Positions 1-24,000 are shown, numbered from the stretch's first letter. The stretch: 64,000 bases of DNA from a bacterium (GCA_040757115.1 JBFLYA010000001.1:6526-70525), one strand, 5' to 3'. Numbers and translations are program-made. The notes: generated by a model from the letters alone, not told the origin.

Positions 1-3000
1 GTAAAGGTAGTAATGAATTTACCATTTGGTTCTGTCGTTACTTTAGTAATAGTCCTGGTAGTCCCAAAGTCAATCTGGATAAGTTCAGTCGCATAAAATC
101 CTGTGCCAATAATACTAACAATAGTCCCTACTGTCCCCCTATCTGGACTTACCACAGCAATTTCCTGGAAGATAAAGATATATCTTGTATCCTGTTTGCC
201 TGAATCAAGTCCCATAGGTGTAACCGAAGTTGTCCCATAAACCTGGGTATCAATGGTAAATGTAGTATAGAATCTTCCCTGTGCATCTGTTGAAATTGTA
301 GTAATAGTTAATGTCCTACCAAAATCAATTTGAATAAGTTCTGGTTGTGCAGGATTACTTTCTGGATTATATCCTTTCCCTTCTATAGTAATGATTGTTC
401 CCACTGTTCCTTCAGTTGGAGCAAGTAGAGAGATACCAGGTCTGATAAGGAAAGAGGTATAGGCACATTCTTCTGAAGGAATACCTCTAACAGTTACGGT
501 AATCCTACCCGATTGTTCATCAACGGTGAAATTAGCAATAAATTCACCAATGCCATTGGAGGTAGAAGTAGTAATAGTAAGTGTCGTACCAAACTGGACA
601 AATATATCCTCAGTCGCACCATAACCATTACCCCTTAGAGTAACAACAGTTCCCACTGGACCACTATCATACCAGATACTGGTTACATTACCTCTAACTG
701 CAAAGAAGTTTGCGGCGGAAGTATTCTTATCTCTCGCCACAACCGTCTTTGTAGCGGCAATCTGAGTATCGATAGTAAATGTGGTTCTAAATTGACCATT
801 CCAATCAGATGAGGTAATAGTAATGGTAGAATGTGTACCAAAATCTATACCAATTAACTCACTGACACCATACCCCGTGCCTTCTATAGTAACTATACTA
901 CCAACCGACCCTTGTGAAGGTGAAACAACCGTTACCCGACCTGTAATCGTAAATGACCCTAATGCGACTAAAGTGGTCTCAGAACCTGTAGCCTTAATTG
1001 TTGTTCGACCATAAGGCTGAGTATCTACGGTAAATGTAGTTGAGAATGTTCCCAAACTATTAGTCAAACCAATTCCTACAGTTCTACTGGTTCCAAAATC
1101 AATATAAATCGTCTCCGTCCTGCCAAATCCATCGCCTACAACGGTAACAATAGTTCCCAATGAACCCGAAGTAGGTGTAACCTTAATAATATTTCCATAA
1201 ATGAACAATGTCTTTTCATTCACCAGCCCCATTCTTAATCCAGTTGCCCGAACAGTAGTGCTTCCGGCAGGTTGTGTATCAATGGTAAATGTCGTGGTAA
1301 AAGTCCCTCTGATATTTGTTGTCACCGTAGTTATGGTTAGGAATGTTCCAAAATCAATCTGGATAAGCTCACTGGCATCAAAACCATTACCTCTCACGAT
1401 AATCTTTGTTCCCACAGAACCTCTATCTGGTGAAACTAAACTAATCTCGCCAACAATGAAGAAATTCTCCACAAAAATGTATCCTGCATTCCCTGTAGTA
1501 TTTCCACGATCAGTAATAGTCTTGGTTCCTGCAGGTTGTGTATTAACCGTAAATGTAACCGCATAGGTTCCAAAATTACTACAGTTAGTTTTGACAATAT
1601 AATTGCTATAAGGTGACTGATATGCATGATCAAAAATACCAAAGAAAAGTTTTACCTCTTCATTCTCCTTCCAGTGACCATTTCCAACCACCGTAACGAT
1701 GCAGCCAACAGAACCACGATTAGGTGTTACTAAAACAATTCTTGGGGTAACAAAGAACAGTCCTTGTTTAACACTTGCCTGCCCGGTGAAGATACCTGTA
1801 GCGACAATAGTGTTGAGATAATAAAGTTGCGTATCCACGCTAAATGTAGTCTCAAATTCACCACGATAATTAGAAGAAGTAAGAGCAATCGTCACCGTTG
1901 TCCCAAAACTTATTCTCACAAGTTCTGACTTTCCATATCCATTTCCTTTTACGGTAACAACTGTCCATGCAGGACCTTTTGTCGGTGTAATAAAGGTAAT
2001 TTCTGGAATAATCACAAATGGGTCCTCGGCAATTTGACCCGAACCTTCACCAGTAGCAATGATACTTGTCGTGCCATAAATCTGGGTATCAATACTAAAC
2101 ACCACCGTAAACGAACCAATCGTATCCGTAGTAGTTATTGTCATTGTCTTAGTTGTGCCAAAATCGATAAATATTCGCTCCTGCACACCATAGCCATTAC
2201 CTGCAACAGTAACAAACGACCCTACTGTTCCAGAAGGCGGTGAAATCAGAGTAATATTTCCTGTAATAACCATGAAATTCAAAGTCTCTTGAAGTGATGC
2301 ACCAGCACCTTTGGCAAAAATCGTTGTTGTGCCAAAAGGTTGAGTGGTAACGGTAAATGTGGTGGAGAAAGTCCCACCCAGCTGAGTTGGGGTAGCAGTA
2401 GTCGTCCCCACAAAATATTGCGTGGAAGTTCCTTTACCAAAATAAACACCTACATTCTCATTAGCACTATAACCATCACCCCAAATAATAACAATTGTTC
2501 CTACACTACCACTCGTAGGTGAGACTTGGTAAATTCGACCAACTATTCTGAAGTAATTGAACTTCTGTTGAGAAAAACTCGAAGCACATATAGTTGTAAA
2601 ACCATAAATTTGGGTGTTGACTGTAAATGCAGTTGAAAATGTCCCTGTAGGTGTAGTCCATGTTTTCACAATTGCTGATATCTCTCCAAAATGAATCATT
2701 ACTTCTTCTGATGCTTTATACCCATCACCTTTGACCGTGACAATTGTTCCAATTGTTCCTGATTCTGGACTAACTAAAATGATATTACCTACGAGAGTAA
2801 AATCAGGACTAAGTGTTATCGTTCCTGAAGAAATATACCCAAATATACTTATTGTCTTTGCACCATACACCTGGGTATCAACCGTAAAGGTCACCCGGAA
2901 AGAACCATCATTTGAAGAAGTTGTCGTTGCAATTGGTAATGTAGTTCCAAATTTAACTTCAATCGTCTCTGAACCACTAAATCCACAACCTTCTATAGTT

Positions 3001-6000
3001 ACTATTGTTCCTACACTACCATAGGTAGGTGAATATAATGTTATGCCACGATTAATCACAAAATAGACTGTATCTTTATTTTGCGTCGTCAATCCTGTTA
3101 CCATAACAGTAGTCGTTCCTGAAGGTTGAGTATCGACAGTAAAAGTTAAACTAAATGTCCCTAATGTACTTGAAGTTACTGTAGTTATAGTCTTATTTAT
3201 CCCAAAATCAACTCTGACAGATTCTCTCTCTCCAAAACCATTACCTTCTATAGTCACCGTTTCCCCGACTAACCCTGATGTTGGATAGAAGTAAATAATT
3301 TTACCATCTATATAGAAGGTATTCTTATAATAAGGATTATTCAGTGTTGTGGAACCCATATTTCTTCCAACTACAGTAATCGTTACCGTCCCACCTATCT
3401 GGGTATTAACCGTAAATGAATAAGCGAATGTTCCTCCTACTGATATTTGGAACGGATTATTTTGAATGGGCTTAAAAGTACCAAACATAACAAGGACAGA
3501 TTGACCGTTTCCCATATGTGAACAATACCCATCTCCAAAGACAGTAATTAGCGTCCCAACAATCCCATGCGATGGAGAAACAAGAGATACCCTACTCAAA
3601 ATTCTGAATGTTACCGAATATGACCCGGTTGAATTTACTCCTGATGCGGTCACAGTTTTAGAACCCCAGGTACCTTCCACTAAGGTTGCTGGTTGAGTAT
3701 CAACCGTGAAATAAGTAGAGAATGTCCCGTAGGCATTTGTGGTTGCAAAGGCTATACTTACCGTACTACCAAAACTAATCCTTACCTGCTCTGTCGCACC
3801 ATATCCATCACCGACCACCGTTACTCGAGTCCATTCTATCGGTCCTGACTTAGGCGTTAAGGTAATAATCTTGGAAAGGATAAAGAAGGTATCACACGCC
3901 TCCCGCGTTCGAGAAGGATCATCACCCTCACTCTTCCATACATTCCACGCAAGTATTGTCGTTAGACCATAAGGTTGTGTATCTATAATAAAGTTAAATG
4001 TAAAGACACCTTTACTATCTACTTGCACTTCTTTATATTCTATCTGAGGAACAGTACCAAAATCAACCTTTACATACTCAGAGGCGATAAATCCATCACC
4101 CATAACCGTAATGTATGTTCCTACAGTGCCTATATTAGGTGAAACTAAAATAATATGTGGGGTTATCTTAAATTTCAAGTAGTCATATCCAGGACTATAT
4201 GAATTAATTACCTGACCTGAATTCAAACCTCGGACTTCCATCGTCTTTGTCCCATAAGGTTGAACATTTATCGTAAATATAGTTGTCCATGAACCATACG
4301 CATTAGTGGTAACTAAATTAATCGTCGGCGTATTTCCTAAACTTATACGGATAGTTTCAGTTGCTCCAAATCCTGTCCCTTCAATCGTTACATAAGTTCC
4401 TACACTACCTATTCTTGGAGTATATAAGGTAATCTCGGGAATTATCTTAAAGGTAGTCTCTCTTACTTGCTGTGTCTTTATCCCGATAACTTTAATAGTC
4501 GTAGTGCCATAGATTTGTGTATCAACCGTAAATTCAGCACTAAACTCACCACTAACATTTGTTGTCGTAGAAACAATAGTAACCGTCGTGCCAAAATCAA
4601 TTTGAATTACTTCACTCAAACCATAACCATTACCTGTTACCATAACTCGAGTATTTACTATTCCTTGAGCAGGATTAACCTGGGTAATATTAGGTCTAAT
4701 ATGGAAGAAATTAATACTATATTCCCTATGAGTATTTCCTGTAACTGTAATAGTTGTCGTCCCATACGGCTGAGGGATATTTGGATTAAATTCAATATCA
4801 CTCCGTTCACCTATCACTGAAACCTCATATGGAGAACCCCCAACACTAATTAAAGTTCCAAAATCAACTTGCACCTGCTCTTCTATCCCATAACCGGTTA
4901 CAGCTATTCGTATCTTATAATTACCAATTGTTCCATACATAGGAGTAACAGATGGAATAGATGGTATGATACGGAAATAGTCGTGCTGGTCTTCCCCTGA
5001 AATGATACCAAAAACTCTAACTGTCTTTGTTCCTAAATACTGCGTATCCACCGTAAATGTTGCTGCGAACACTCCATCATTATTTGAGCTAACTAAGGTA
5101 ATACTTCTGGTTGTCCCAAAATCAATCTGGATAGTTTCACTTATGCCATAACCATTACCGGATATGCTTATCATCGTACTTACCGAACCTATTCTCGGTG
5201 CAAGATAGGTCAATGATTTATAAATCACAACTGTAGTTATTGTGCTGGCAAAGCTATTTAACCCAATACCAGTAACCGTAGTTGTTCCAGCAGGTTGGGT
5301 ATCAATCGTAAATGATACGGTAAATGTCCCGATTTCATTACTTGTAGTCCTCGTAATAGTCGAAGTCCTACCAAAATTAATCACTACTGGTTCCAACTTA
5401 TCATACCCTGTCCCAAATACTGTAACTATCGTACCTACACTTCCCTCTACAGGCTGAACAAATATCTTTGGCATAATCATAAATGAAACCTCTCTCTCGA
5501 ACTGACCACCCCTGGCTATGACAGTCTTTGAACCATATATTTGAGTATCAACCGTCCATACTGTCCAGAATGTTCCTAATTCATTAGTTTTAGTTCCAGC
5601 TTCGGTATATGGTTTTCTATCTCCAAACCAAATATCAATACTTTCTGTTACTCTATACCCTGTCCCATGCAGGCTAACAAGGCTACCTACCGTCCCGGCA
5701 ACTGGTGAAATAACAATATTAGGTAAAACACGATAAGATGTATCTTCTGCAAATTTATTGCTTTCATCACTTGCCGTTATCTTTACTGAACCATAAGGCA
5801 CATCTTGTGAAGTAAATGTAGTGGTAAAGGAACCTGTATTATCCGCCGAAGTCTGTGTAATCGTTAGATAATGTCCAAAATCTATCCTTATGGTATGATT
5901 GGGACCAAAACCGGTTCCTTTAACCATAATAATCGTCCCAATTGTGCCTTCACCTGGCGAAACTAAAGTAATACCTTGAACTATCTCAAAGAAATTAATC

Positions 6001-9000
6001 GCACAGACACCTGATGGTGTGCCCTTAGCTGTAATAGTATTCGTGCCGTTCGACTGTGGTTGAATCTCAAATGATGTATTAAATTCACCATCAAAATTAG
6101 AAGTAGTTGTTGCCATTGGTATAAGATTCTGTGGCCAATAAACCTCAACTAATTCTGATGACCCATAACCATTACCTTGAACACTAACTATTGTCCCTAC
6201 AGGTCCTTGAACAGGTGAAACAATGGTTATCTTTGGACCAATAGTGAAATAATTAACGGCTTCCTGTTTTGGAGCATTCACCTCATAAGCCAATACCGTT
6301 GCTGTTCCAGCAGGTTGTGTATCAATAGTAAATGTTACTGTAATAGTCCCATTACCTGAAGACGTAGTATTAGCCTTATCCATAACCGTATTATGCGGGT
6401 CTATCTCTGTCCCAAATTGAATCTTGACCGGTTGATTATTTCTATAGCCACTACCATATACTGTTACTACTAATCCAACTGTACCAGAAGATGGTGAAAT
6501 CCTATAGATATTAGCAATAATCTTAAATGATGCTGTGGCTACCTCTAAAGAAAGCGTCCCTGTCGCCATAACTAATTTAGGAGAATGCGAACTATCCACA
6601 GGCTGTGTATCTACGGTAAAGATAGTATCAAATGACCCATTATGAATTGTCGAAACAGTCGTAATCGTTCGTGTCCATCCAAAACCTATGACTACTAACT
6701 CTGATGCACTGTAACCATTTCCTTTAATGGTTACAACAGTAGTTACTGGACCAGTAGTCGGTGTAATTAAATAAATATTAGATTTAATAGTCAGTGTGCC
6801 ATAAGGATTACTGCCTGAATCTATTCCCGTTGCCCGCACTGTTGTTATTCCAACGGGTTGGGTATCGATAGTAAATGTCGTGTTAAAGTAACCTGCCGCA
6901 TCGGTACTGGTAACATTTATACTCTTTGTCGTCCCAAAATCTATCCGTATACACTCACTACCTCTAAATCCATCCCCTTGCACGATAATTATAGTTCCCA
7001 CAGTGCCGGTCTTTGGCGAAATTACCTTTACGGTTGCCTGAACGGTAAAGGTTCCACTTGCCTCTTTACTGGTATTTATTCCAACTGCTTTAATCGTAGT
7101 TATCCCTACTGATTGGAGATCAACCGTGAAAACTGCAGTGAACGAACCATAGGCAGTAGTTGTAATAAAGGTAATCGTAGGTGTTGTGCCAAAGTGAATA
7201 TGTATTGGCTCTGTTGCACCAAATCCATTCCCTCTTACCATGACAGGTATTCCTATTGTCCCATCTTTAGGCTGAATCAGGATAATATTAGGCAAGATAG
7301 TGATCGTGCCTACTGCCTCTTCACTTCCCTTTGCCTTGACGGTAGTTACGCCATAAGGTTGGGTATTAATGGTAAAGGTAGTTGTCCAGCTTCCTTCTGC
7401 CACGCTGGATGCCAATCGAATATTAGAGTTAGTCCCAAAATCTATATGAATTGTCTTGGATGCCCCATAACCATTTCCACTTAGAGTTATGATTGTCCCT
7501 ACTGTTCCTTCTTTTGGAGTAATGGAAATGATATTGGATGAAATACTAATTGTGCCTTTATCTGAAATCCCATCTCCAGAAGCAACAATCGTTGTTATAC
7601 CATAAGGCTGGGTATCTATGGTAAAGGTAGTGGTAAATGAACCCTCGGCATAAGCAGATACAAATTGAATACTCCTTGTCGTCCCAAAGTCTATTTGAAC
7701 CGTTTCAGATGCTCTATATCCATTACCTCGTAAAGTAATAATTGTCCCTATCGTTCCTTCGGTTGGCGAGATAAAGATAATCTTTGGTTCAATTCTAAAT
7801 TTAACCTCGTAGGTAATCGTTCCTCCACACGCCCTAACTGTGGTCCAGCCATAAGGTTGGGTATTAATCGTAAAGGTAGTTGTAAAACTGCCACCTGCAC
7901 TGGTAGAAACAGTGGTTATAGTTTGTGTCGTCCCAAAATTAACATAAACCGTATCATTCCCACAATAACCATCTCCAGATACGGTAACTATTATTCCTAC
8001 TGTGCCGGAGGTTGGAGTAATATACACTAAGTTCTGTTTAATAAATGTATTATCAATGGCAAATATACCCAGGGCATCATTATAGGCTATAATAGTCGTC
8101 CGTCCATAAGGTTGGGTATTAATGGTGAATGTGGTTGAGAAACTGCCGTAGGCATCTGTTGAGGTAAAGGTAATACTTGGTGTCGTGCCAAATTTTATAC
8201 GAATAGTTTGACTGGCTCCAAATCCATTACCGGTTATGGTTACGATTAACCCTACCGTTCCTTCTGTTGGTGTAACTCCTGTAATAGCAGGTTCTATTCT
8301 GAAAGTAATATAAGCCGGATAATTCGAGTTCAATCCTGTTGCTTTAATCGTTGTCGTCCCATATTTCTGGGTATCGATAGTAAAGGTAACCGTAATTGAC
8401 CCTGATTCTACGGCAGTAACTGTATTAATGGTCAGGGTAGTTCCAAAATCTATCTGCACTAATTCATTACTCAGATAACCATTTCCATAGAGAGTAACTA
8501 TCGTGCCTACAGTTCCCGCGGTGGGAGTAATCTGGACTAACTTCGGTGCTATCTTAAACAGTAACGAATATGCCGATGTGCCGGTATTTATTCCCCAGAC
8601 GGTAATAGTAGTCGTCCCAATTCGTTGAACATCTACGGTGAAGGTAGTTGAGAACGACCCACATCCTTCTGAAGTAATCATAGTAATAGTCTGATTAGTT
8701 CCAAATTGAATTTGCACTGACTCATTACCACCAAATCCATTACCTGCTACCGTAACCACACTACCAACTGTTCCTTCTGTTGGTGTAACTAAAATAATAT
8801 TCGGTCCAATAAAATAGGTATTGCTTGCAGATACATCTCCCTCTTCCATATCAACGGCAACAACCGTTGTCGTTCCATAAGGTTGAGTATCAACTGTAAA
8901 TGTCGTTGAGAAACTACCTTGTGCATAAGTTGAGGTCATAGTAATAGTCTTATTTGTCCCAAAGAGAATATGAATGGTATGACTGGCGCCAAAACCATTA

Positions 9001-12000
9001 CCGGTTACCGTCACTGTAGAACCAACGGTGCCATTAGGTGGTATAACTGTAGTAACCTTTGGTTTTATGGTAAATGTCTCGATTGCAGAATTGAGTGGAC
9101 AGGTCGCCTTGATTGTAGTAACCCCACTTTGTTGGGTATTAACCGTAAAGGTAATTGTCCATGTCCCTGAAGCGTTAGCAGAAACCGTTGTAATTGACCT
9201 GGTAGTTCCAAAATCAATCCGCACGGTTGAAGCAGAACCAAAACCATCACCTTCTAATGTTACTATTGTCCCCACTGTGCCTTCTTTGGGTGTAGAGGTA
9301 TAGATTTTTGCCATTACATAGAAGATATTTGATGCTCGCTTTTCGTATTCAAGCATTTGTGCATATTTATATGAATTCCAGGCAGTAAATGTAGTTGTTC
9401 CTGCTGGCTGTTGAATATTAAAGTCATAGACCAAACTAAATGTCCCTGCCTGACTGGCATAAGTACCACCATAAGGAGGTGCTGGTGGTGTTACACTAGA
9501 ATCCGTACCATATATTGTCCCAAAATCAACATAAATCCCTTGACTTGCCGCATAGCCTGTGCCAAAGAGGGTAATTTGACTTCCCACCGTCCCTTTAGTC
9601 GGTGAAACCCAGACTAACTCTGGAATTATCTTGAATAAATCATCTACACCACCTGTATCATCATCTTCAAAACAAGAAGTTGTATCTGTGCCATAGATAG
9701 TCTTTGTTCCATAGGATTGGGTATCAACTGTCCATGTGCCATTAAATTCACCTCTATCCGTTGCCGTCGTAATCGCAATTGTTCGTGTCCAGCCAAATCC
9801 AATCAGCACCTCACCACCACCGGTATAACCATTACCCGAAACGGTAACTATAGTCCCTACCGTTCCCTTAATTGGAGTAATGCTAACAATATGTGGTACT
9901 ATTCGTAAGGTATCTGTAGCTTGTTCACGACCTGTAGGTTCTTTCGGACCGATAGCCATCGCTGTCGTTGTTCCAAAGACTTGAATGTCAATGGTAAATG
10001 TTTTCGTAAATGTCCCTGAGGCATTAGTCGTAGCAATAGTAATGGTGGAATTATTACCAAAGGCAATACGGATATTGCTATTTTCAGTATAACCTCTACC
10101 TTCAATCGTAATTGTTGTTCCTACGGTAGCAGACTTAGGTGTAAGTGTAGTAATTATCGGTAAGATAAAGAAGTAATTGCGTGCCCATTGTGCTGTGCTC
10201 AGACCAATAACCTTAATAGTTGTCGTGGCAAAAGGCTGAGGTATAGAAACTACACTCTGATCGAATTTTGCAGTAAATGTCCCTTCTGGAGAGACTCTCG
10301 GGTGAGTATCTGGCTCAATAATCACAAATCCCGTATTAGCAACTAAACCATACTCTGTCCCATAATCAATTGTTATATTTTCTCCATTTACACCATCTCT
10401 ACCAAAACCTGTTCCCTTAATAGTAATTATAGTTCCTATTGTCCCTGTAGTTGGACTAACCACAGTAATTTCTGGAATAAGAACAAAATATCTATACTGG
10501 TCAGGTCCTTTATTCCAGTATTCACCCCACTTATCTACTTCCTGAGTGTTAAGTCCTGTAGCCACAATCGTCTTGGTGCCAAAGTATTGGGTATTAACCG
10601 TAAAGATAGTAGCAAATGTCCCGGCATTGTTAGTTGAAACTGTGGTTATAGTTAAGGTTGTGCCTAAATCTATCTGCACTACCTCATTAGCACCATAACC
10701 ATCACCCTGAATAAGAATTGTATCTCCTACCTGTGCCTTCCATTTATCTGGCACATCAAAATGTGGCACTTCTACTTGCCGACTGATTAGTGTAATATGT
10801 GAATTTATCTTAAATAAGTCATCACTGCGATGATTATCCAGATCAAAGACATCAGCCGCCACAATTGTATGTGTCCCTGCCGGCTGTGTATTTACCGTAA
10901 AGGTAATACTGAATGTTCCACAGGCATTTGTCTTTGTTTCGGTAATAGTGGTAGTCTGACCAAATGTTACCCGCACGGTAGCCGTAGCCGCATAACCATC
11001 ACCAGCTATAGTTACAATTGTTCCTACAGACTGTGCCCTTGGTGTAACCAACCAGATATGCGAAATTATCTTAAAGGAATCTACATCCCTATATTCATCT
11101 TTATCAAAGTCATTGTATCCCATCCCTCCTGGTATCATACGAAATGCCTTAATAGTTGTCGTCCCATAAGATTGTGAATTAACATTAAATGTAATTGAAA
11201 ATGTCCCATTATAATTTGCAGTCTGTTGGATTATTGCCCAGCTAGTCCCAAACTCTATCGTTACTGTCCCCTGACGATGATAACCATTTCCATAAACTGT
11301 AATTGGCAATCCTACCGTCCCCACAGTAGCGGTAACATAAACAATATTATGCGTAATCTTGAAATAAGTATGATATTGTGTAGTAGTCCGTTCCCCGACT
11401 GCATTGACCGTATGTGTTCCATAGCATTGTTCATCAACCGTCCATTGTGTTATAAAACTACCATTGCCTGCTGCAGTTACCGTTGTAATACTCATATTTG
11501 TCCCAAATTCTATACGAATAAGTTCACTACCACCATAACCTGTTCCACTTACCTCTACTACAGTTCCCACTGTTCCGGTAAGAGGTGTAATACTAATTCC
11601 AGGGATAATTATAAAGTAATCATAATCCTTTGTAATCTGACCTGTGGCTGTAATAGTAGTTGTTCCCACAGGTTGAGTATCAACCACAAATGTGGCACTA
11701 AATGTTCCATTAGGTCCGGCAGTAGACATAGTAATACTTATATGTGTTCCAAAATCAATCTGGACAATTTCACTTGCCAGATAACCACTTCCTATGATAG
11801 TAACTTGAGTCCCTACTTGCCCTGAAGGAGGAATTACACTTATAATTTCTGCCTTTATAAAGAAGTTATTAAATGCCTCTTGTTTAGACATACCTTCAAG
11901 TGTTCCTCTACTTCTTACCGTAGTAGTTCCTGCTGGTTGAGTATTAATAGTGAATATATAAGTAAACTGTCCAATACCATTACATGTAGTTATTATATTA

Positions 12001-15000
12001 AATTCAACTGTAGTTCCAAACTTAATTTTTAGCTCATCCCCTGCATCATAACCATCACCATAAATTGTTACCCGACTTCCTACTGTCCCTTGTGTTGGCG
12101 AAACGGTATGAATCCTGGCGATAATGGTGAAACTACCCATCAAAACTCGCCCTGATGTGAGTCCTGTTACCACAACACTCTTTGTCCCAAAAGTCTGCAC
12201 ATCAACCGTAAATGTCAATGAGAAACTACCGTATGCATCTGAAGTGGTAATAGTTATAGTCGAATTAACCCCAAACCTGACATGAATGGTCTCTGTTGCT
12301 TCAAATCCATCACCCGTAATAGTAACCACTGTCGTTACTGTCCCTATGGTTGGGGTAAATAGTGTAAATTGCGATAAAATATTAAATGTCCCGCTTGCCT
12401 GCTGACCTGTATTTATGCCTCTTGCAGTAATCGTTGTCCAGCCATATCGTTGAGGATTGATAGTAAATGTAGTGCTAAATGAACCTGAATCAGTCGTCCT
12501 GGTAACAATGATACTCACCGTCGTTCCAAAATCAACCTGTATCTCTTCACTCGCTCCAAACCCACTACCGGCTACTGTAACGATTGACCCAACAGTATTG
12601 GCTTGTGGCTCAACCTTGAATATCTCTGGCTTGATAACTATCAACCGATAATCTTGCACCAAATCAACCTCATTTATATCTGTGGCAATAATGGTTGTCG
12701 TGCCGTAAGGTTGCGTATTGATTGTGAAGGTAATTGTCCATGAACCCTGCGGTTTAGAGATAACCGTTGTAATCGTCTTTGTCGTTCCAAAGTCAATCTG
12801 AATAGTATGAGTTGCACCAAATCCATTACCGCTTACCATAATAATCGTTCCTACTGTGCCTTCTATTGGACTGTAATAAATAATTTGTGGCAAAATAGTA
12901 ATGGTAGCAATTGCCTCCTCACTTCCTCTTGCCTTGATAGTCGTAATTCCATATCTCTGTGTATCGATAGTAAATGTAGTTGTAAAGCTGCCTTCGGCAT
13001 AAGTTGAGGTAACTTGAATACTTGGCGTTGTCCCAAAGTCAAGATGAACTATCTTGTATGCCCCATAACCATTGCCTTTAACCGTGATAATTGCACCGAC
13101 AGTCCCTGATGTTGGTGTAAGAGAGATAACATTTGACTCGATACTTAAAGTCCCTTCTGCCTTTATTACTTTACTATCGCTATGAGCAACAACAGTAGTA
13201 ATTCCGTAGTGTTGGGTATCAATGGTAAAGGTAGTAGTGAAGCTACCTTCGGCATAAGTTGAGGTAGTTTGAATAGTTAGTGTTTTTCCAAACTCTATCC
13301 GAATGATGGTTGAGGCATCGTAACCATTACCTCTAATAGTAATTATCGTCCCTACAGTTCCAGAGGTAGGTGAAATAAGAATGATATTCGGTAGAACAGT
13401 TACACTGCCATAGCGATGTAATCCCTGGTCATCTCCATGAGCACCTACTGTCGTTGTGCCATAAGGCTGCGTATCAATAGTAAATGTTGTGGAGAAACTT
13501 CCTTGTGCATAGGTTGAGGTAAGTTGAATAGTCGGTGTAGTTCCAAATTCTATCCTTATTGTCCTTGAGTTGCCATAGCCATTACCACAAATAGTAATGA
13601 TTGTTCCAACCGTGCCTTGCGTTGGTGACAGGTAGATGATATTGGGTAATATAGTAAGAGTCTTTTCTGCATTAATACCATCGCCATGTCCCTTTACTGT
13701 AGTTGTCCCATAGGGTTGAGTATCAATAGTAAATGTGGTAGTGAAGCTACCTTCGTCATAAGTTGAAGTAAGTTTAATAGTTGGTGTTCTCCCAAACTCT
13801 ATACGAATCCTTCTATAAGCCTCAAAACCATCACCCCTCACTATAACTACCGTTCCAACTGTCCCTGTATTTGCGGTAACATAAACGATATTTGGCAGGA
13901 TAAAGAATGTCAGGTTATCGGCATCGGCACCGGTAGTCATACCTGTTGCTTTAATCGTTGTCACACCATAAGGTTGTGTATTGATGGTAAAGGTAGTAGT
14001 GAAGCTACCTTCTAACTCTGCTGTCACAGTGGTAATCGTCATTGTCGTGCCAAAATCTACCTGGATTAACTCACCTGCTTTATATCCACCACCGCGTAAT
14101 GTAACTACTACACCGACAGTTCCTTGAGTTGCAGTTACTGACACTAATTGCGGCTTAATCACATACTCAAACTTCCAACTGCTCTTGCCAGTCATAACCC
14201 CAATTGCCTCAATAGTCGTCGTGCCTATCGGTTGAGTATCAACCGTAAAAGTAGTGGTGAAGCTACCGCAGTATTCTGCAGAAACTAAGGTAATTGTCTC
14301 TGTCGTTCCAAACTTAATTCTTACTAACTCACTTGAACCATAACCATTACCTCTAACTGTAACTACACTTCCTACTATGCCTTCTTTTGGCGTAATTAGT
14401 ATAATCTCTGGAATAATTCTGAGTCTATCATCATCTGAGGCAATATCTCCTGCAATAGCCTGGACATCCACTGCCACAATGGTCGTCGTGCCATAAGGCT
14501 GTGTATCAATGGTGAAGGTGGTTGAGAAACTACCGTGTGCATAAGTAGAAGTCATAGTAATCGTTTGATTAGTTCCAAAGAGAATATGAATGGTATGACT
14601 GGCGCCAAAACCATTACCTGTAACCGTAACTATTGTCCCTACTGTAGCTACCGCAGGAGTAACTGAAGTAATAACAGGTTTAATTCTAAATGATTCCGTA
14701 GCAAAGTTAAGTGGACAGGTAGCAGTAATTAAGGTATTACCACTCTGTTGCGTATTAACCGTAAAGGTAATGGTAAATGTTCCTGAGGCATTAGCAGAAA
14801 CCGTAGTAATAGACCTGGTAGTTCCAAAATCAATCCGCACGGTTGTAGCAGACCCAAAACCATCACCTTCTAATGTTACTATCGTCCCCACTGTGCCTTG
14901 TTTCGGTGTAGATGTATAGATTTTTGCCATCACATAGAAGATATTCGATGCCTTCTTATCATCACCTTGTGGTATCGCGTGAGTATATGAATTCCAGGCA

Positions 15001-18000
15001 GTAAATGTGGTAGTGCCTGCCGGTTGCTGAATTCTGAAATCATACACACTACTAAATGTTCCCGCCTCACTGGCTGTTCCATAAGCAGGCAGGAGATGAT
15101 CTACCTCCCAGTCTTCATCCTTATCTGTTCCAAAATCAACATAAATTCCTTGACTTGCCGCATAGCCTGTGCCAAATAATGTAATTTGTGTTCCTACAGT
15201 TCCCTTAGTCGGTGATACCCAGACTAACTCAGGAATTATCTTGAACAGGTCATCTACTCCACCCAGGTCATTATCTTCTACACCAGAAACAGTATCAGTA
15301 GCATAAATAGTCTTTGTCCCATAGAATTGAGTATCAACTGTCCATGTCCCATTAAATTCACCCGTTGGATTTGCCGTTGTAGTTGTAATCGTCCGTGTCC
15401 AGCCAAATCCAATCAGCACCTCGCCACCACCGGTATAACCATTACCATAAAGTGCAACTCTCGTTCCCACCGTCCCTTTAGTCGGTGTAATACTAACAAT
15501 ATGTGGCACTATTCGTAAGGTATTTGTAGCTTGTTCACGACCTGTAGGTTCTTTCGGACCAATACCCGTCGCTGTCGTTGTTCCAAAGACCTGAACATCA
15601 ATGGTAAATGTCTTTGTCCATGTGCCTGAAGAATCTGTGCTCGCCATAGCAATCGTTTGATTATTACCAAAGGCAATGCGAATGATAGCATTTTCTGAGT
15701 AACCTTTACCTTCGATCGTAATTGTTGTTCCTACAGTGGCGGATTTCGGTGTAAGTGTTGTAATCTTCGGCAGTATAAAGAAATAATTTTGTGCAAACTG
15801 TTTGGTACTGCTACCATAAACGACAATAGTCGTTGTCCCAAATGGTTGGGGAATATCTACTATGTTTTGTAAAAATGCTACAGTAAATGTTCCTTCTGAT
15901 GAAACTCGAACTGGTTCATAAGGAGGTTCGATACCCTCTACTCCATATTCAATATGAATCAATGTCCCATAATTAATCTCTAAATATTCACCATTTCCTA
16001 ATTCATCTCGATGACCATAACCTGTTCCACACACAGTAATAATTCTTCCTACGGTTCCGGTAGTTGGAGTAACTACAGTAATTTCCGGGATAATGACAAA
16101 GTATCTGTATTGGTCAATACATTTTTGCCAATATTCACCCCATTTATCGACTTCCGAAGTTGTAACTCCGGTAGCAACAATTGTTTTTGTTCCAAAGTAT
16201 TGCGTATTTACCGTAAATGTGGTGCTAAATGTCCCTGCATAATTAGTGGTTACCGTTGTTATTGTCAATGTTGTTCCTAAATCTATTTGAACCATTTCTG
16301 TCGCACCATAACCATCTCCAGTAATGAGAATAACATCTCCAACTTGTGCCTTCCATTTATCTGTTACCACAAAATGTGGTATCTCTGAAGTCCTACTAAC
16401 TAAGGTGATATGTGAGGTTATTCTGAATTCATCGTTATCACAATGATTATCCAGATCAACTAAATCAGCCGCAGTTATGGTATGACTACCTGCTGGTTGT
16501 TCATTCACGGTAAAGGTAACACTAAATGTCCCGCAGACATTTGTTGAGACTTGAGTGATAGTAGTTGTCCAGCCAAAATTTATCCGAACTAAAGCCAAAC
16601 TCGCATAACCATCACCAGCAACTGTAACAATTGTCCCCACTGACTGTGTCTTTGGTGTTACCATCCAGATATGTGAAATTATCTTAAAGCAATCAATATC
16701 ACTATAATCTGGTGTATCCCATAAATCTTGTAATCCTGCTGGTCGGTCACGCTGAGCAATAATTGTCGTTGACCCATAAGGTTGGTCATTAACCGTAAAG
16801 GAAATGCTAAATGTCCCATTAATATTTGCCAACCGTTGTATCATTATTGGCACAGTGCCAAATTTTATCGTAACGGTGCCATTTCGATGATAGCCATTAC
16901 CATAAACCGTAATTGGTAATCCAACCGTGCCTACCGTAGCAGTTACATAAACGATATTATGTGTAATCCTAAATTCCTTATTGAATGAAGTGTTTGATGG
17001 TGCACCAACAGCAGTTACAGTATGTGTGCCATAACATTGTTCATCAACCGTCCATTGTGTGCTGAAATAACCTGATGCCTGTGAAGTTATAGTCGTAATT
17101 GTTCGATTTGTGCCAAATTCTATGCGGATAAGTTCACTGCTACCATATCCAGTTCCACTTATCTGGACTATTGTTCCTACTGTTCCAGTTTCTGGGGTAA
17201 TGATAATTCCAGGTGTAATGACAAAATATTGATATGCACCAGTAATCTGACCCGTTGCTTTCACCGTTGTCGTTCCCACCGGTTGAGTATCAACCGTAAA
17301 TGTAGTACTAAATGTCCCATTTGGTCCTGAGGTAACCGTAGTAATCGTCAGATGCGTGCCAAAATCAATCGTGATAAGTTCTGCTGCCTTATATCCAGTT
17401 CCTTGAACCGTGACGGGTGTTGACACGGGTCCAGAAGATGGCACAACTGATGTAACTTCGGCCATAATAAAGAAATAATTATATGCTAACTCTTTAGACT
17501 TATTTGTCCCTCTACTCCTAACAGTTGTTGTTCCTGCTGGTTGAGTATTAACTACAAATGAATGGAGAAATTGTCCGTTAGAATTAGATGATTGAACCTC
17601 TGTAGATTCTTCATCCGTTCCAAATTTAAGGACTATATCTTCTATGGCAGAATATCCATCTCCTCTTATTGTAACAACTGTCCCTACCGTCTGACGATAT
17701 GGAGTAACCTCATATATTCGCGCAATAATCTTAAATTTACCATAATCTACAACACCACTGGTTAATCCTTTTGCACTTATCGTCTTAGTTCCATAAACCT
17801 GGGTATCAACCGTAAATGTCATTGAGAAACTACCATAAGCATCTGTTGTTGTCATCGTAATAGTGCCAGTATTACCAAATCCAATACAAATCCCCTCGGT
17901 TGCACCATAACCATTTCCAGTTACCGTCACGATGCTATATATCTTTTCACCAGTAGTTGCCACAATAAGAGCTTCTACTACCCCAGATGTAGGTGTAATA

Positions 18001-21000
18001 AGTGTAATCCTTGGTAAGATAGTAAATGTGGATGTAGCAATAACATTTTCCGCTGCTGATAATGTTGATGTTCCACTTGCTTTAATTAATGTCGGTCCCT
18101 GTTGTTGAGTATCCACAGTAAAACTGATACTGAATGCCCCCAATTTATCAGTTCTGGTAATAATTCTGGGTCTTGTTGTCCCAAAATCAATTTGTATCCC
18201 TTCACTTATCCCAAAACCATTACCGGCTACTGTCACCTCACTACCAACAGTTCCTGATTGAGGACTAACTAAAATAATATTCGGTAGTATCTTCACGGTA
18301 AATGTTGCATCTTGTGCGCCGCTATTCACACCAATAACTCTAATTGTTGTTGTGCCATAAGATTGCGTATCAATTGTAAATGAGTATTCAAATTCACCTT
18401 TATAATCACTATTATACCAGATAGTTCTGGTTGGATTATTCCCAAACTCTACTCGTATTGGTTCCACTCGACCGAAACCGCTACCTTTTACTGTCACGGC
18501 ACTACCTACACTTCCCGCATAAGGTGCCACTGAATCAATATGTGACAAGATAGTAATAAATGTCGAAGTCCCATCTTGTGAACTCATACCGATAGCAAAA
18601 ATAGTTGTTGTCCCATAAATTTGGGCATTAATCGTAAATGTCGTGCTAAATGACCCATTATTTTCTGCCTGGGCAATAGTTGCTGTATTTGTAGTCCCAA
18701 ATAATATATGGACTTGCTCATTAGAATAATAGCCATTACCTCGAACAGTAATTATTGTGCCAACTATCCCCTGGGTTGGAGTAACAAAGATAATCTCTGA
18801 CCTTATCTTGTAAATATATCTTTCATAAGACTGCCCGGTGGATGACCCTACGGCTATAATACTTGTAGTTCCATAAGATTGAGTATTAACGGTAAATATG
18901 GCGGTAAAGCTACCCGAGGCAGTGCTGGTAACCGTAGTAATAGTCCGTTCCGTCCCAAAGATAATACTAATCATTTCAGTAGCACCAAACCCATTACCCG
19001 CAACTGTAACCCAACTACCAACAGTTCCTTCCGTAGGAACTATAGAGACAATATTAGACAGGATAACAAAAGTAGAAGTTGCTGTAGCTGGAGATGTTAC
19101 TCCTGGAGTAGAATCAACATCCGTCGCTATAATCGTCGTTGTCCCATAAGGTTGAGTATTAATTGTAAATGTAACGGTAAATGACCCACCGCTTTTCATA
19201 TTCATCTGGGTAATATTAATTGTTGTTCCAAAATGAATACTGGCACCATTTGCCGGATAATTAAATCCATTACCATAAACAGTAACTACTTTTCCAACCG
19301 TTCCAGAAGTTGGGGTAACATAAACTATCTTAGGTAAGATTTCGTAACCCAGAGAAACTTGTTTAGATACACTACTTTCATCTTTTGCCCAAACCTCTCT
19401 TAGTGGATAATGCATCTGTTCTGGAACTGTAAATATGGTTGAGAAACTTCCATGTGAATAAGAAGATGTTAGAGTTATGGTTGCTAAATCAACTCCAGTT
19501 ACACCAAATAATATCGCTATCGTCTTAGAGGCATTAAACCCATTTCCTGCGATTGTTACTTTACTTCCTACTATTCCGGATTGTGGTGTAAAGACAATGA
19601 TATTGGGTTCTATCTTAAATTCATGCCTGGCAATAATTCCTTTAGAATCAATAGCAGTTATCGTTGTTGAGCCATAAGGCTGGGTATCGATGGTAAAGAT
19701 AACTGTGAATAAGCCATTTCCATCAGTTGATATACAAGTAATACTCAATGTCGTTCCAAAATCTACTCTTACATAATCGGTCCCTGTAAAACCATCACCG
19801 CTCATTGTCACTATAGTTCCTACTGTGCCCTGATTAGGACTAACATCAATTATCCTTGATAATATCCTGAAGAAGACGGTAGCAGTAGTTCCTGTATTCA
19901 CACCTTTAGCTATAACTGTTGTTGTTCCTACAGGTTGCCCATTAACAGTAAATGTCGTACTGAATGAACCATAGTCCCCATCAATATTAACCAGTGGAAC
20001 AATAGTTACTGTCGTCCCAAATGAAATCAGGATTTTCTCATTTGGAGCACCACCAAAACCATTACCCGCAATTGTCACCGTCGTACCTACAGTTCCATCA
20101 CTCGGGTTAAATACCGTAATATTAGGTCTTATCTTAAACTTATCCTCTGCAGATATATTCTGTGCATCCTTAGCTTTAATCTTACAAGCATCACCACTTG
20201 CATAGTCTCCGTATGCATCAGCCCGCTGAGTATTGACCGTAAATGTAGTTGTCCAGCTACCATACGCTGTTGAGGTAACGGTTGTAATTGACGAATGCAT
20301 ACCAAATTGTATGACAATAGGACTTGTGGCATTAAATCCATTCCCACTCAAAGTAACTATCGTTCCGACTGACCCTGTTTGTGGGCTGACATAGATAATC
20401 TTTGGCAGTATCTTGTAGGTATTGCTCGCAGAGCCTAAACTACCGTAGCCAGTAATCGTTGTTGTGCCGTAAGGCTGGGTATTAATGGTAAATGAAACGC
20501 TAAATGTGCCATTGACATTAGCAGATACAGTCTGAATCGTCGGTGTCGTGCCAAAGCCAATCCACACCAACCCTTCTTTCGGATACCCATTGGCAGTAAT
20601 CGTTACCACACTCCCAACCGTGCCTTCACTCAACTCTACCTTCCAAATAGCAGGTAGTATGGTGAATGTCCCATAATCTGTCTCTTGTGATGATCCTGAA
20701 TATCTTGCTTCTACTGTTGTTGTTCCACCTGGCTGAGCATCTACCGTAAATCTTACCGAGAATGTCCCATCTGTGCTTAGCTCTTTTTCAGCTATCCAAC
20801 CTGGTCGTATTCCAAAGATTATCTTTATGAAATCACCTGGATTGTTATATGGATATCCATTCCCTTCTACGGTAACAAAACTACCTACTGTCCCGGCTGG
20901 CGGACTAATCAATGTTATCTCTTGCGTCACCGTAAATGTAGCCTTTGCACTTGCTCCGGAGGTAGTTCCTGTCCCAACTATCCATTTCTCTCCATATTTC

Positions 21001-24000
21001 TGCGTATCTACGGTAAACACTGCCTGTAATACACCCAGTCTATTCACCTGACTAACTAATATCGTTGGTGTCTTACCAAATCCTATCACTACTTGCTCTG
21101 ATGCCCCATATCCATTACCACACACCGTTACCATACTCCCTACGGTCCCGTATAGCGGTGAAACGGAAACAATATTGGGTATAATCCCAAACTCAGTCGA
21201 GGTCACTCTCTGTTCCAAATCTAAAACACTTATTCCTATTATAGTCGTTGTCCCATAAGGTTGAACATCTACCGTAAAGGTAGTGGTAAATGACCCCGTT
21301 ACTTCTACTATCAAAGTCTTCCTTGTTGGTGTCTCGCCAAAGGCTATCCGTATATTCTCGCTCCTCCCATACCCTGTTCCTTGAACTGTCACTACACTAC
21401 CTACCCTCCCTCTGGTCGGTGTTACTTTAAATATCTCTGGTATTATCTTAAAGAACTTATACGCACTCTGCTCTGCCTCCTGACTCAACCCAAATACCCT
21501 TATCGTCGTAGAACCATAAGGTTGTGTATTTACTACAAAATAAGTAGTAGTAATCGTAAATGTCCCATCTGCACTACTGTTACCACCTCCAGAACAACTT
21601 TGCAAACTACCAAAATCATAATATATAGGTATTCCCTGACCATAACCATTAACATCTACCCTCACTGGTGTCCCGACTGTCCCTATGGATGGTGTAACTA
21701 ATATTATCTCCGGCATTACCTTGAAATACCTTATATCCTCTTGCTCTATACTCATCCCTCTGGCGATAACTGTCTTTGTCCCGTAAATCTGTGTATCTAT
21801 AGTAAATGTCGTCCCAAATGTCCCTACTCCATTTGTAGATATAGTTGTAATGGTATTCTTATTCCCAAAACTTATCCGAATCAATTCACTCGCTCCATAC
21901 CCATCTCCGGTAATCGTCACAAAACTACCTACTGTCCCTTTTGTCGGCGTGCTTGCTGTTATATTTACCTCTATCCTGAATGACCGGCTATATTGATGGT
22001 TATCTCTGTCATATAGCCCATATCCGGTAACTGTCCTTGTCCCATAAAATTGAGTATCTACGGTAAAGGTAATATTGAATGTCCCTCGTTCACTACTCCT
22101 ACCCGTAGTTATCGTCTCTGTCGTCCCAAATTTTATCTGTATCTCCTCTGTTACAGCATATCCTGTCCCAATTACCGTGACTATCTTCCCTACTGACCCG
22201 GCAGTTGGACTAATCAATATCTCTGATGTAATCACAAATATTTCATCATCTGTGGGAGATGGAGTGAAATCAACTCCTTTTACTATCACACTTGTTGTCC
22301 CATAGGCTTGTGAATTTACAGTAAAGTAAACGGTAAATGTCCCATCTGTTGATGCCTCTAAATAATCATTTATTGGTTTACCTTCATATTCATAATCTGG
22401 ATCTAATCCAAACTGTATCCAGATATCATCATTTGCCCTATATCCATCTCCTGATACGGTTACCCGTGTTCCTACTGTCCCTGTATCTGGTGTAATATCA
22501 AAGATATGTGGTAATATGTTGAACTCATCTGTATCCACTGCCCCTGAATTAATTCCATATGCCCGAATAGTATGTGTCCCATATCTCTGACTATTTACTG
22601 TAAATACAGCCGTAAATGAACCCATCGCATCTGAAGTAGCCGTAGTAATAGTTGATGTCGTCCCAAAGTCTATCTGAATTAATTCTGTGGCATTATACCC
22701 ATTACCTCTAACGGTTACTACAGTCCCTACTGTCCCTTCCTTTGGTGTAACCTCGGTTATCCCTGTCTTAATACTAAATGTCCCGGTATCTTGTGTAGTT
22801 GAATTAATCCCATAAGCACGGATGGTGGTTATCCCTACTGGTTGGGTATTAACGGTAAATACCACACTAAATGTCCCGTTAATATTAGCACTAATGGTAT
22901 TAATCGTCAAGGTCGTGCCAAAATCTATTTGCACTAATTCTGACTGCCCAAACCCATCACCGCTTACGGTTACCTGTGAATTTACTACCCCTTCTCTCGG
23001 ATATATGCTGGTAATATGTCCGATTATCTTAAATTGTTTATATGCTTCTTCTAATTCATTACCTTTGCTGGGTAGTTGATATTTACCATAGGCTCGCACA
23101 CTCGTAGAACCATAAGGTTGTGTATTAACTACAAATGAATGGGTAAATGTTCCACCAGGTCCTTGTATGTGCATCAAACTTACTATCTGGCTACTACTAC
23201 CAAAATCTATCCAGACATACTGCTCACCACCTCCACTATATCCATCTCCTGATACCGATACTAATGTCCCTACACTGCCAATTGTCGGTGTAATCAATAT
23301 CCGAGGAATAACTTTGAATTTAGTCTCTACCTGCCGCCCAGAACTCATCCCACTTATTATCACTGACTTCGTCCCATAATCCTGTATATCTACGGTAAAT
23401 TTAGTTGAAAATGAACCATAGACATCGGTAGTAGTTATCGTCAGTGTCTTTGTCGTCCCAAATTCTATATGTATCGCCTCGGTCTGCCCAAATCCATTCC
23501 CGGCTATCGTTATTTCAGTTGTTACTACCCCTATAGTTGGTGTAAAGGTGATTAATTGTGAAAGTATATTAAATGTCCCTACTGATTCTTGTCCTGTATT
23601 TAATCCAGCTGCCTTAACTGTCGTTATCCCATACCTCTGGGTATCTATCGTAAATGTGGTTGAAAAACTACCTCGTTCAGATGTCCTTGTCGTAATAATC
23701 GTCTTTGTCGTCCCAAAGTCTATCCTTATTTCCTCGGTTGCTCCATATCCTGTCCCTAATACCGTAACTATCGTCCCTATTACACCCTCTGTTGGTGAAA
23801 TCCACACGATGACCGATTTAATGGTAAATGTCGCATATAACTGCTCGGCTACATTCACATCGATTATTGTCATCGTTGTTGTCCCATAAACTTGCGTATC
23901 TACCGTAAATGTAGTTGAGAATGACCCATACGCCGTGCTACTTATCGTTGTTATCGTTGCCTCTAATCCAAAACTTATTCGTATCAGACTGCTCGCACTA

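Follow-up and report, generated by a model that had tools for sequence, protein, structure and literature searches.

Titin and nebulin are giant modular proteins that carry super-repeat block duplications. Among bacterial proteins, MpAFP/MpIBP of Marinomonas primoryensis contains about 120 identical repeats of 104 residues (PMC4083281), fibrillar adhesins form a surface class with stalks of immunoglobulin-like (Ig-like) repeats (PMC8877628), and proteins of more than 10,000 amino acids (aa) are rare, with adhesion-type roles suggested for them (West-Roberts et al. 2023, bioRxiv 10.1101/2023.11.21.568195). Here we analysed a stretch of 64,000 nucleotides (nt) from a bacterium (GCA_040757115.1, JBFLYA010000001.1:6526-70525; hereafter the window, with positions counted from its first letter), which is the interior of a single giant gene and not a gene set, and focused on a tandem duplication of a 21-domain block within it, here called D3. 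D3 is a real, in-frame duplication that is ancient and stably kept, and we consider it likely that block growth with an overlay of gene conversion, as proposed below, accounts for its present form.

The gene resembles titin and nebulin in its many homologous beta-sandwich modules of ~90 aa and in having grown through tandem, in-frame duplications of blocks that span many modules, with modules one block apart more alike than neighbours. It differs from them in belonging to a bacterium, in having no exons, in showing three local block pairs (periods of 21, 28 and 21 units) with no array-wide super-repeat, and in the age of its block copies, every one of which is old, with a synonymous divergence (dS) of at least 0.5. 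With fibrillar and RTX-type adhesins it shares a very long tandem Ig-like array, a presumed extracellular stalk and growth via repeat duplication. MpAFP has identical repeats, a sign of recent amplification or homogenisation, whereas nucleotide identity between units in the window averages 0.515 and does not go beyond 0.87 for any pair. With an open reading frame (ORF) that exceeds 21,332 codons it belongs, like other giant bacterial genes, to the rare class above 10,000 aa; the giants of Omnitrophota are mosaics of HEAT, TPR, dockerin and other domains, whereas this gene is built, within the window, almost exclusively from one type of Ig-like unit. D3 is a further example of a known growth route of giant modular proteins and is mechanistically ordinary.

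A six-frame stop map of the window showed that frame 3 of the minus strand is free of stops for 21,332 codons and runs off both ends, and that each of the remaining five frames contains 831-2,764 stops. The complete protein exceeds 21,332 aa and is among the rare giant bacterial proteins. Its translation has a high content of T, G, I, V and S and a visible periodicity, and a hidden Markov model (HMM) derived from the sequence itself resolved 244 contiguous units of ~85 aa, which tile 21,215 of the 21,332 residues. These units were numbered u0-u243 from the N to the C terminus, that is, from high to low window coordinates, the gene being on the minus strand. Globally aligned unit pairs gave a background identity of 51.5 ± 4% at the nucleotide level and 41.5 ± 7% at the protein level, and adjacent units were 43% identical on average, exceeding 60% in 11 of the 243 neighbour pairs. 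In the unit-by-unit identity matrix, three block duplications stood out, all of them tandem: D1, D2 and D3, with periods of 21, 28 and 21 units, respectively.

For D3, a blastn comparison of 7,100-12,700 with 12,701-18,300 returned one collinear, in-register high-scoring segment pair (HSP) of 5,182 nt, with the best out-of-register HSPs at 64-66% identity. An ungapped scan that covered every offset between 60 and 30,000 nt ranked 5,610 first, with high values also for 5,613 and 5,616, and a repeat search found pairs 5,610-5,616 nt apart with 75-83% identity over 300 nt. The two copies are collinear at offsets of 5,604-5,616 nt, corresponding to a period of 21 units, and each of 13 consecutive units (u176-188) had its best window-wide partner exactly 21 units downstream. 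The mean identity along the 12-unit D3 diagonal was 0.70, compared to 0.415 ± 0.026 for random diagonals (z = 11). In-register nucleotide identity was 68.6% over the full interval and 75.0% for 14.5-17.4k against 8.9-11.8k, with 150-nt windows peaking at 0.88-0.91 and longer stretches lower; the core, u177-188 versus u198-209, was 73.2% identical in nucleotides and 72.8% in amino acids. The similarity also covers silent sites, with a third-position identity of 0.49-0.68 versus 0.365, a proportion of synonymous differences (pS) of 0.52-0.53 in the core versus 0.69 in the background, and a fourfold-site identity at conserved residues of 0.50 in the core, compared to 0.33 for random unit pairs and 0.28 expected from base composition. 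Because silent sites are similar too, the copies reflect common descent and not convergence. In the last third of the block (u189-195 / u210-216) in-register identity was 61%, which is no higher than the matches of canonical units elsewhere and cannot be told apart from them, because units of this subclass cross-match in any register.

Stop codons are absent from both D3 copies. In their DNA alignment, 13 of the 19 gaps have lengths divisible by 3, and the remaining six fall into three close pairs, each of which adds up to a multiple of 3. Protein and DNA alignments located a 12-codon in-frame insertion in u176 (97 aa) relative to u197 (85 aa), and several short loops or linkers have been swapped for unrelated sequence of similar length with the frame kept. 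Compensated frameshifts were considered as the source of the linker replacement and rejected, the three pairs of gaps that are not multiples of 3 lying in low-identity stretches where they are indistinguishable from alignment noise. A first-pass annotation of this DNA had described a collinear tandem segmental duplication at 7,100-18,280 with an offset of 5605-5620 nt, an in-frame insertion of 11-12 codons and a frame-keeping linker replacement. All of these hold, with a mapped extent of ~7,125-18,345, an insertion of 12 codons (17,972-17,937, against ~12,332 in the other copy) and loop or linker swaps at several places. Its similarity figures were too high, namely roughly 80-90% for the core, a level reached in the 150-nt windows only, and about 60% for the background; the overall identity of D3 does exceed the background, and that of u189-195 / u210-216 does not stand out.

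To map the junctions, we compared boundary units with their partners one period up- and downstream at informative sites, using the maximum chi-square method with permutation. The D3 junction fell at ~12,735, in the middle of u195 (p ≤ 0.0005), and upstream of ~12,735 the pattern of u215-216 was favoured by 96 versus 35 informative sites. The length of u195 is normal, and the domain repeat therefore continues in phase across the join. The D1 junction lies at ~40,443 within u89, which mostly follows u110 and whose last ten informative sites all follow u68, and the D2 junction lies at ~27,624; each of the three junctions is in phase (p ≤ 0.0005). The flanks u68/u110 of D1 and u110/u166 of D2 showed a protein identity of 0.67-0.68, compared to 0.415 in the background. 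As a hybrid of both flanks, u89 fits unequal crossing-over between similar flanking units, and homology-guided unequal crossing-over is well supported as the probable origin of D1 and D2. The outer ends of D3 were placed at the junction ± 5,610 nt, the left (N-terminal) end being fuzzy. The coordinates of all features are collected in Table 1.

Table 1. Features of the window and of the two related loci. Units are numbered from the N terminus of the encoded protein; nt, nucleotide identity.
Feature	Position	Strand	Basis or remarks
Giant ORF interior, 244 Ig-like (divergent IPT/TIG) units	1..64000	-	stop map, translation, self-derived HMM, AlphaFold2 (AF2), Pfam
D3 block, u175-195 / u196-216, period 21	~18,345-7,125	-	unit identity matrix
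D3 copy 1 (N-terminal), 21 units, about mid-u174 to mid-u195	12736..18345	-	in-register similarity to copy 2; right end = junction
D3 copy 2 (C-terminal), 21 units, about mid-u195 to mid-u216	7125..12735	-	in-register similarity to copy 1
D3 well-conserved core, copy 1, u177-188	14403..17714	-	identity to u198-209, dS, omega
D3 well-conserved core, copy 2, u198-209	8796..12110	-	identity to u177-188
Junction unit u195, 87 aa, 5' part like u216, 3' part like u174, breakpoint ~12,735	12621..12881	-	three-way informative sites, maximum chi-square
12-codon in-frame insertion, copy 1 u176 (97 aa) vs copy 2 u197 (85 aa; ~12,332)	17937..17972	-	protein and DNA alignments
Least diverged patch, copy 1, u184-187, candidate gene-conversion tract	14670..15761	-	partner 9,054-10,151; nt 0.80, fourfold identity 0.63
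Longest exact repeat in window, 44 nt	8959..9002	.	partner 14,575-14,618; exact-repeat scan
D1, 21-unit block, u68-88 / u89-109 + u110 right flank	35106..46055	-	nt 0.62, NG86 dS 1.3, junction ~40,443
D2, 28-unit block, u110-137 / u138-165 + u166 right flank	20640..35105	-	nt 0.60, dS saturated, junction ~27,624
L001, fully open ORF, same unit type	JASEHA010000001.1, 12,159-31,411		metagenome-assembled genome (MAG), GTDB species representative
L002, fully open ORF, same unit type	JAHIZN010000456.1, 39,647-55,768		MAG, GTDB species representative

To place the divergence of D3 on a scale, we estimated dS with four estimators, including NG86, and applied the same methods as a calibrator to L001 and L002, two mutually orthologous loci on contigs of ~56-57 kb that are 77% identical over 4,011 aa (dS ~0.7). 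The D3 core (u177-188) gave a dS of 0.83-1.41 and a ratio of nonsynonymous to synonymous divergence (dN/dS, omega) of 0.14-0.25, the whole block a dS of 0.88-2.98 and the least diverged patch (u184-187) a dS of 0.51-0.74, compared to a dS of 0.58-0.74 and an omega of 0.20-0.27 for L001/L002. The D3 copies are therefore as diverged as, or more diverged than, the orthologs of two species-level MAGs, and are not recent. The omega values indicate that both copies are under purifying selection, in the same regime as the orthologs. When the three duplications were compared as blocks, nucleotide identity was 0.67 for D3, 0.62 for D1 and 0.60 for D2, with NG86 dS values of 1.1, 1.3 and 1.9 (saturated for D2), respectively, and D3, taken as a block, has diverged least. 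At the level of single units, the youngest pair of the window lies outside D3: it is u138/u166, at one edge of D2 (87% nucleotide identity, dS ~0.35).

Silent divergence is uneven along D3. NG86 pS was heterogeneous among its units (chi-square, p = 0.008 for the core and 7e-5 for the whole block), as were fourfold sites (p = 0.039 and 0.006, respectively). The lowest pS values in D3, 0.37-0.54, were found in u184-187, and the silent divergence of u189-195 was at background. This pattern is probably that of an old duplication in which gene conversion between the two copies later replaced some patches, and canonical units in the tail were perhaps overwritten from elsewhere in the gene, as the likeness of u192 to u14 may illustrate. 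Two anchor pairs elsewhere in the gene, u89 (40,383-40,631) with u110 (34,857-35,105) and u138 (27,648-27,893) with u166 (20,397-20,639), were observed at 83-87% nucleotide identity with a dS of ~0.35-0.6, far below that of the blocks they delimit (>1.3), a difference that suggests subsequent gene conversion between anchors separated by 21 or 28 units.

We propose that a single old, in-register unequal recombination between domain-coding units 21 apart doubled the 21-unit block and left the normal-length junction domain u195 at ~12,735. Both copies were then kept whole under gene-wide purifying selection as they drifted to ~69% nucleotide identity; later gene conversion between them probably produced the less diverged ~1.1-kb patch u184-187 / u205-208, and in the last seven, canonical units the in-register similarity was lost or overwritten. 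The same process probably generated the two older block duplications in the gene (21 and 28 units).

Several observations weigh against this account. Downstream of ~12,735 only a weak preference for u174-175 was seen (63 versus 51 sites), and it is because this left-flank preference past the junction is weak that the N-terminal edge of D3 is fuzzy. The D3 flanks u174/u216 are just 0.39 identical, which equals the background, and homology-guided crossing-over is proposed for D3 by analogy with D1 and D2 together with its in-phase junction. The in-register partner ranks only 42nd-118th for u191, u192 and u195, so that it is the constancy of the period, together with the junction analysis, that places them in the D3 event. 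Synonymous constraint that differs along the block, or sampling noise, could also account for the uneven dS, and no D3 ortholog or outgroup was found in the collections searched with which to date the event or polarise changes. As for the extracellular stalk presumed above, both gene ends lie beyond the window, so secretion and anchoring are predictions.

The first-pass annotation had called D3 recent and the youngest large duplication visible, and had seen in it a sign of a gene actively expanding by unequal crossing-over and a likely place for copy-number polymorphism between strains or for assembly collapse. Such a recent origin could draw on the status of D3 as the least diverged block pair, on the 150-nt windows at 0.88-0.91 and on database relatives that are mostly partial proteins on 2-5 kb contigs, where short-read assemblies break, but dS is at least 0.51 even in the youngest patch, equal to or above species-level ortholog divergence, and no unit pair in the window exceeds 87% nucleotide identity. 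No exact repeat in the window is longer than 44 nt (maximum in codon-shuffled windows, 16-17 nt), and D3 contains just 26 in-register exact runs of at least 16 nt. Efficient RecA-type recombination requires longer and far more similar tracts, and to assemblers at k above 45, or to long reads, the D3 copies appear unique. With a maximum of 44 nt, recombination would have little to act on and assembly at k > 45 nothing to collapse, which argues against instability. In the single comparison by which array stability in the family was assessed, L001 units 31-74 corresponded strictly 1:1 to L002 units 3-46, 44 units in all, with none gained or lost. We therefore regard a recent, still expanding hotspot as very unlikely. 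Of the annotation's wording, the rank of D3 as least diverged block survives, with the youngest unit pair found elsewhere, and unequal crossing-over is reasonable given the in-phase junctions and the hybrid junction unit; recency and ongoing expansion find no support, a copy-number or collapse hotspot is not favoured, and the identity and dN/dS comparison it had suggested returned a dS that is not low. An assembly artefact, in which diverged alleles or paralogous segments of different strains or loci had been misjoined head to tail, might be entertained for a source that is probably metagenomic and a family that is hard to assemble in public MAGs. The copies, however, are ~31% apart in nucleotides, far more than strains would differ, the reading frame crosses the junction without a stop, with u195 in phase and of normal length, two more blocks of the same anatomy occur in the ORF and no exact repeat exceeds 44 nt, and we give a misjoin hardly any chance. 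As an old and selectively maintained block, D3 should not be flagged as a probable misassembly or a copy-number hotspot.

Two further explanations concern the pattern within D3 itself. A single old duplication followed by independent divergence only, its unevenness due to constraint and mutational noise, would need no gene conversion. The pair u182/u203 illustrates how this could work, with a saturated pS of 0.67 and yet 84% protein identity (omega 0.07), so that constraint alone can hold protein identity, and the silent-site samples per unit are small (22-39 fourfold sites). The heterogeneity of pS and of fourfold sites speaks against it, as do the tail units u191-192, which are closer to distant units than to their in-register partners (u192 and u14, 81% protein identity), and the anchor pairs, whose dS is far below that of their own blocks; we regard this reading as unlikely, though with an appreciable chance of being correct. 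That there was no block duplication at all, and that convergent or parallel selection acted at equivalent positions of a structural super-repeat, might be argued from the recurrence of a 21-unit period in D1, D3 and L001/L002. Synonymous and fourfold sites are similar, however, idiosyncratic insertions and exact runs of up to 44 nt are shared, and no window-wide periodicity of 21 or 7 units exists, which leaves convergence a next to negligible probability. An old block duplication with a conversion overlay is thus the reading we prefer.

The atypical units of D3 are a distinctive part of the block. Long units of 92-106 aa, u180-186 / u201-207, lie at 14,900-16,960 and 9,300-11,350 and carry idiosyncratic conserved inserts that include DKWKAQVGD, VDKWGEYW and IGPKEPTGREQAT and are common to both copies, and the region they occupy is the most constrained part of the block, with omega down to 0.07. 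Within the window, the D3 core that holds these long units has no counterpart in D1 or D2 (diagonal z about 1.4). A two-domain AF2 model of u182-183 showed two Ig-like sandwiches with the extra residues as low-confidence loops (predicted local distance difference test (pLDDT) 85.7, predicted template modelling (pTM) score 0.78), and Pfam returned weak TIG, Big_6 and Cadherin-like matches for the atypical units. From these results we rejected the idea of a separate module type, and the long units are better modelled as Ig-like domains with loop insertions. The 'canonical' units, by comparison, measure 82-87 aa and occur at about u11-26 (~61,000-56,800), u110-119, u139-148, u187-194 and u208-216; they match one another at 55-81% protein identity in any register, with silent sites near saturation (pS ~0.6), and the canonical pair u14 and u192 is ~46 kb apart.

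Regarding the fold of the unit, AF2 on an alignment of 146 units predicted a seven-strand beta-sandwich (pLDDT 89.1), for which Foldseek found generic Ig-like modules alone (TM 0.6-0.69, E ≥ 0.016). The top Pfam family was IPT/TIG (PF01833), matched by 46 of the 146 units at E ≤ 1 with a best value of 1e-6 and with most units below threshold; one D3 unit scored 23.4 bits against Pfam TIG, above the cut-off of 20.9. When the whole 1,867-aa D3 copies were searched against Pfam, no TIG match was found at E ≤ 0.01, and the hits to Rol_Rep_N and F5_F8_type_C_2 were dismissed as sub-threshold chance matches. The best profile match in the PDB was the TIG-type domain D of cyclodextrin glucanotransferase (CGTase; E = 0.009). 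The unit is accordingly modelled as a divergent seven-strand, IPT/TIG-like Ig-like domain of the E-set type.

In two protein searches, the closest database proteins were fragments, 32-53% identical, from Candidatus Desantisbacteria and from unclassified MAGs, no nearer than the window units are to one another. The gene is like IPT/TIG E-set domains in its top Pfam family, its match to CGTase domain D and its seven-strand sandwich, and its nearest database proteins are the partial IPT/TIG-like repeat proteins of Candidatus Desantisbacteria; it differs in that most of its units fall below the Pfam threshold and in that the nearest identities equal the within-gene background, which leaves it with no known ortholog. 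Some relatives pair the unit with tails of the type IX secretion system (T9SS/CHU_C) or with cohesin, dockerin or beta-helix domains. These partner domains and the long Ig-like array make an extracellular role the most likely one for the protein, as a fibre or a stalk of the adhesin type. Almost without exception, the homologs from Candidatus Desantisbacteria are incomplete proteins on contigs of 2-5 kb, and single MAGs contribute dozens of them, which indicates that short-read assemblies fragment inside this gene family. An exact 42-mer had no match in the genome or metagenome contig collections (genome_contigs and metagenome_contigs), and scans with the D3-core alignment found two loci at ~38-39% identity in genomes and none in metagenomes. 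These loci, L001 and L002, were rejected as D3 orthologs, since they share only the generic ITVYGNGY pattern and contain neither the DKWGEYW motif nor the atypical long units.

Adjacent homologous domains of tandem-repeat proteins have been reported to be maintained as divergent sequences, probably as a safeguard against misfolding (PMC4660218). Block duplication sets identical domains 21 units apart and not next to each other, which may avoid misfolding and may explain why growth was tolerated. For a bacterial Ig-repeat gene of more than 21,000 codons, growth by blocks of 21-28 domains is documented here with mapped junctions, a hybrid unit and intact copies, which bears on the origin of giant surface proteins and explains how their repeats remain diverged enough to assemble and, plausibly, to fold.

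The period of 21 units recurs beyond D3. D1 and D2 are contiguous, and the same anchor unit type stands at their boundaries (u68, u89, u110, u138 and u166). L001 showed a weak 21-unit period across its units 3-49 (diagonal mean 0.43 versus 0.381, z about 5), with the rank-1 partner at offset 21 for 9 of 54 units, and in L002 (units 2-42) the rank-1 partner was at offset 21 in 5 of 42 cases, one pair clearly corresponding to L001; the period appears to be common to both loci and older than their divergence. No 21-unit periodicity was detected in the window outside the D1 and D3 pairs, and no collinear run was found between the window and L001. A 7-unit super-repeat, prompted by the offsets 21, 28, 49, 70, 77 and 98, was rejected, as offsets of 7 and 14 were not raised anywhere in the window and the multiples of 7 arise when periods of 21 and 28 are added. 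A common ancestral 21-unit super-repeat of D1 and D3 was likewise not established, the best rotation (u68 with u187) being consistent with it but within the null. It is doubtful, with a slim chance in our judgement, that the length of 21 units marks a conserved structural or functional super-repeat or a self-perpetuating crossing-over register inherited from an ancestral 21-unit array; in the first case, bacteria would have an equivalent of the ruler-like super-repeats of titin.

Lastly, the longest closed ORF in the window lies on the plus strand at 11,226-11,825, antisense to the giant gene, and would encode 199 aa from a TTG start. The paralogous stretch of copy 1 contains seven stops, which makes this ORF almost certainly spurious as a gene.

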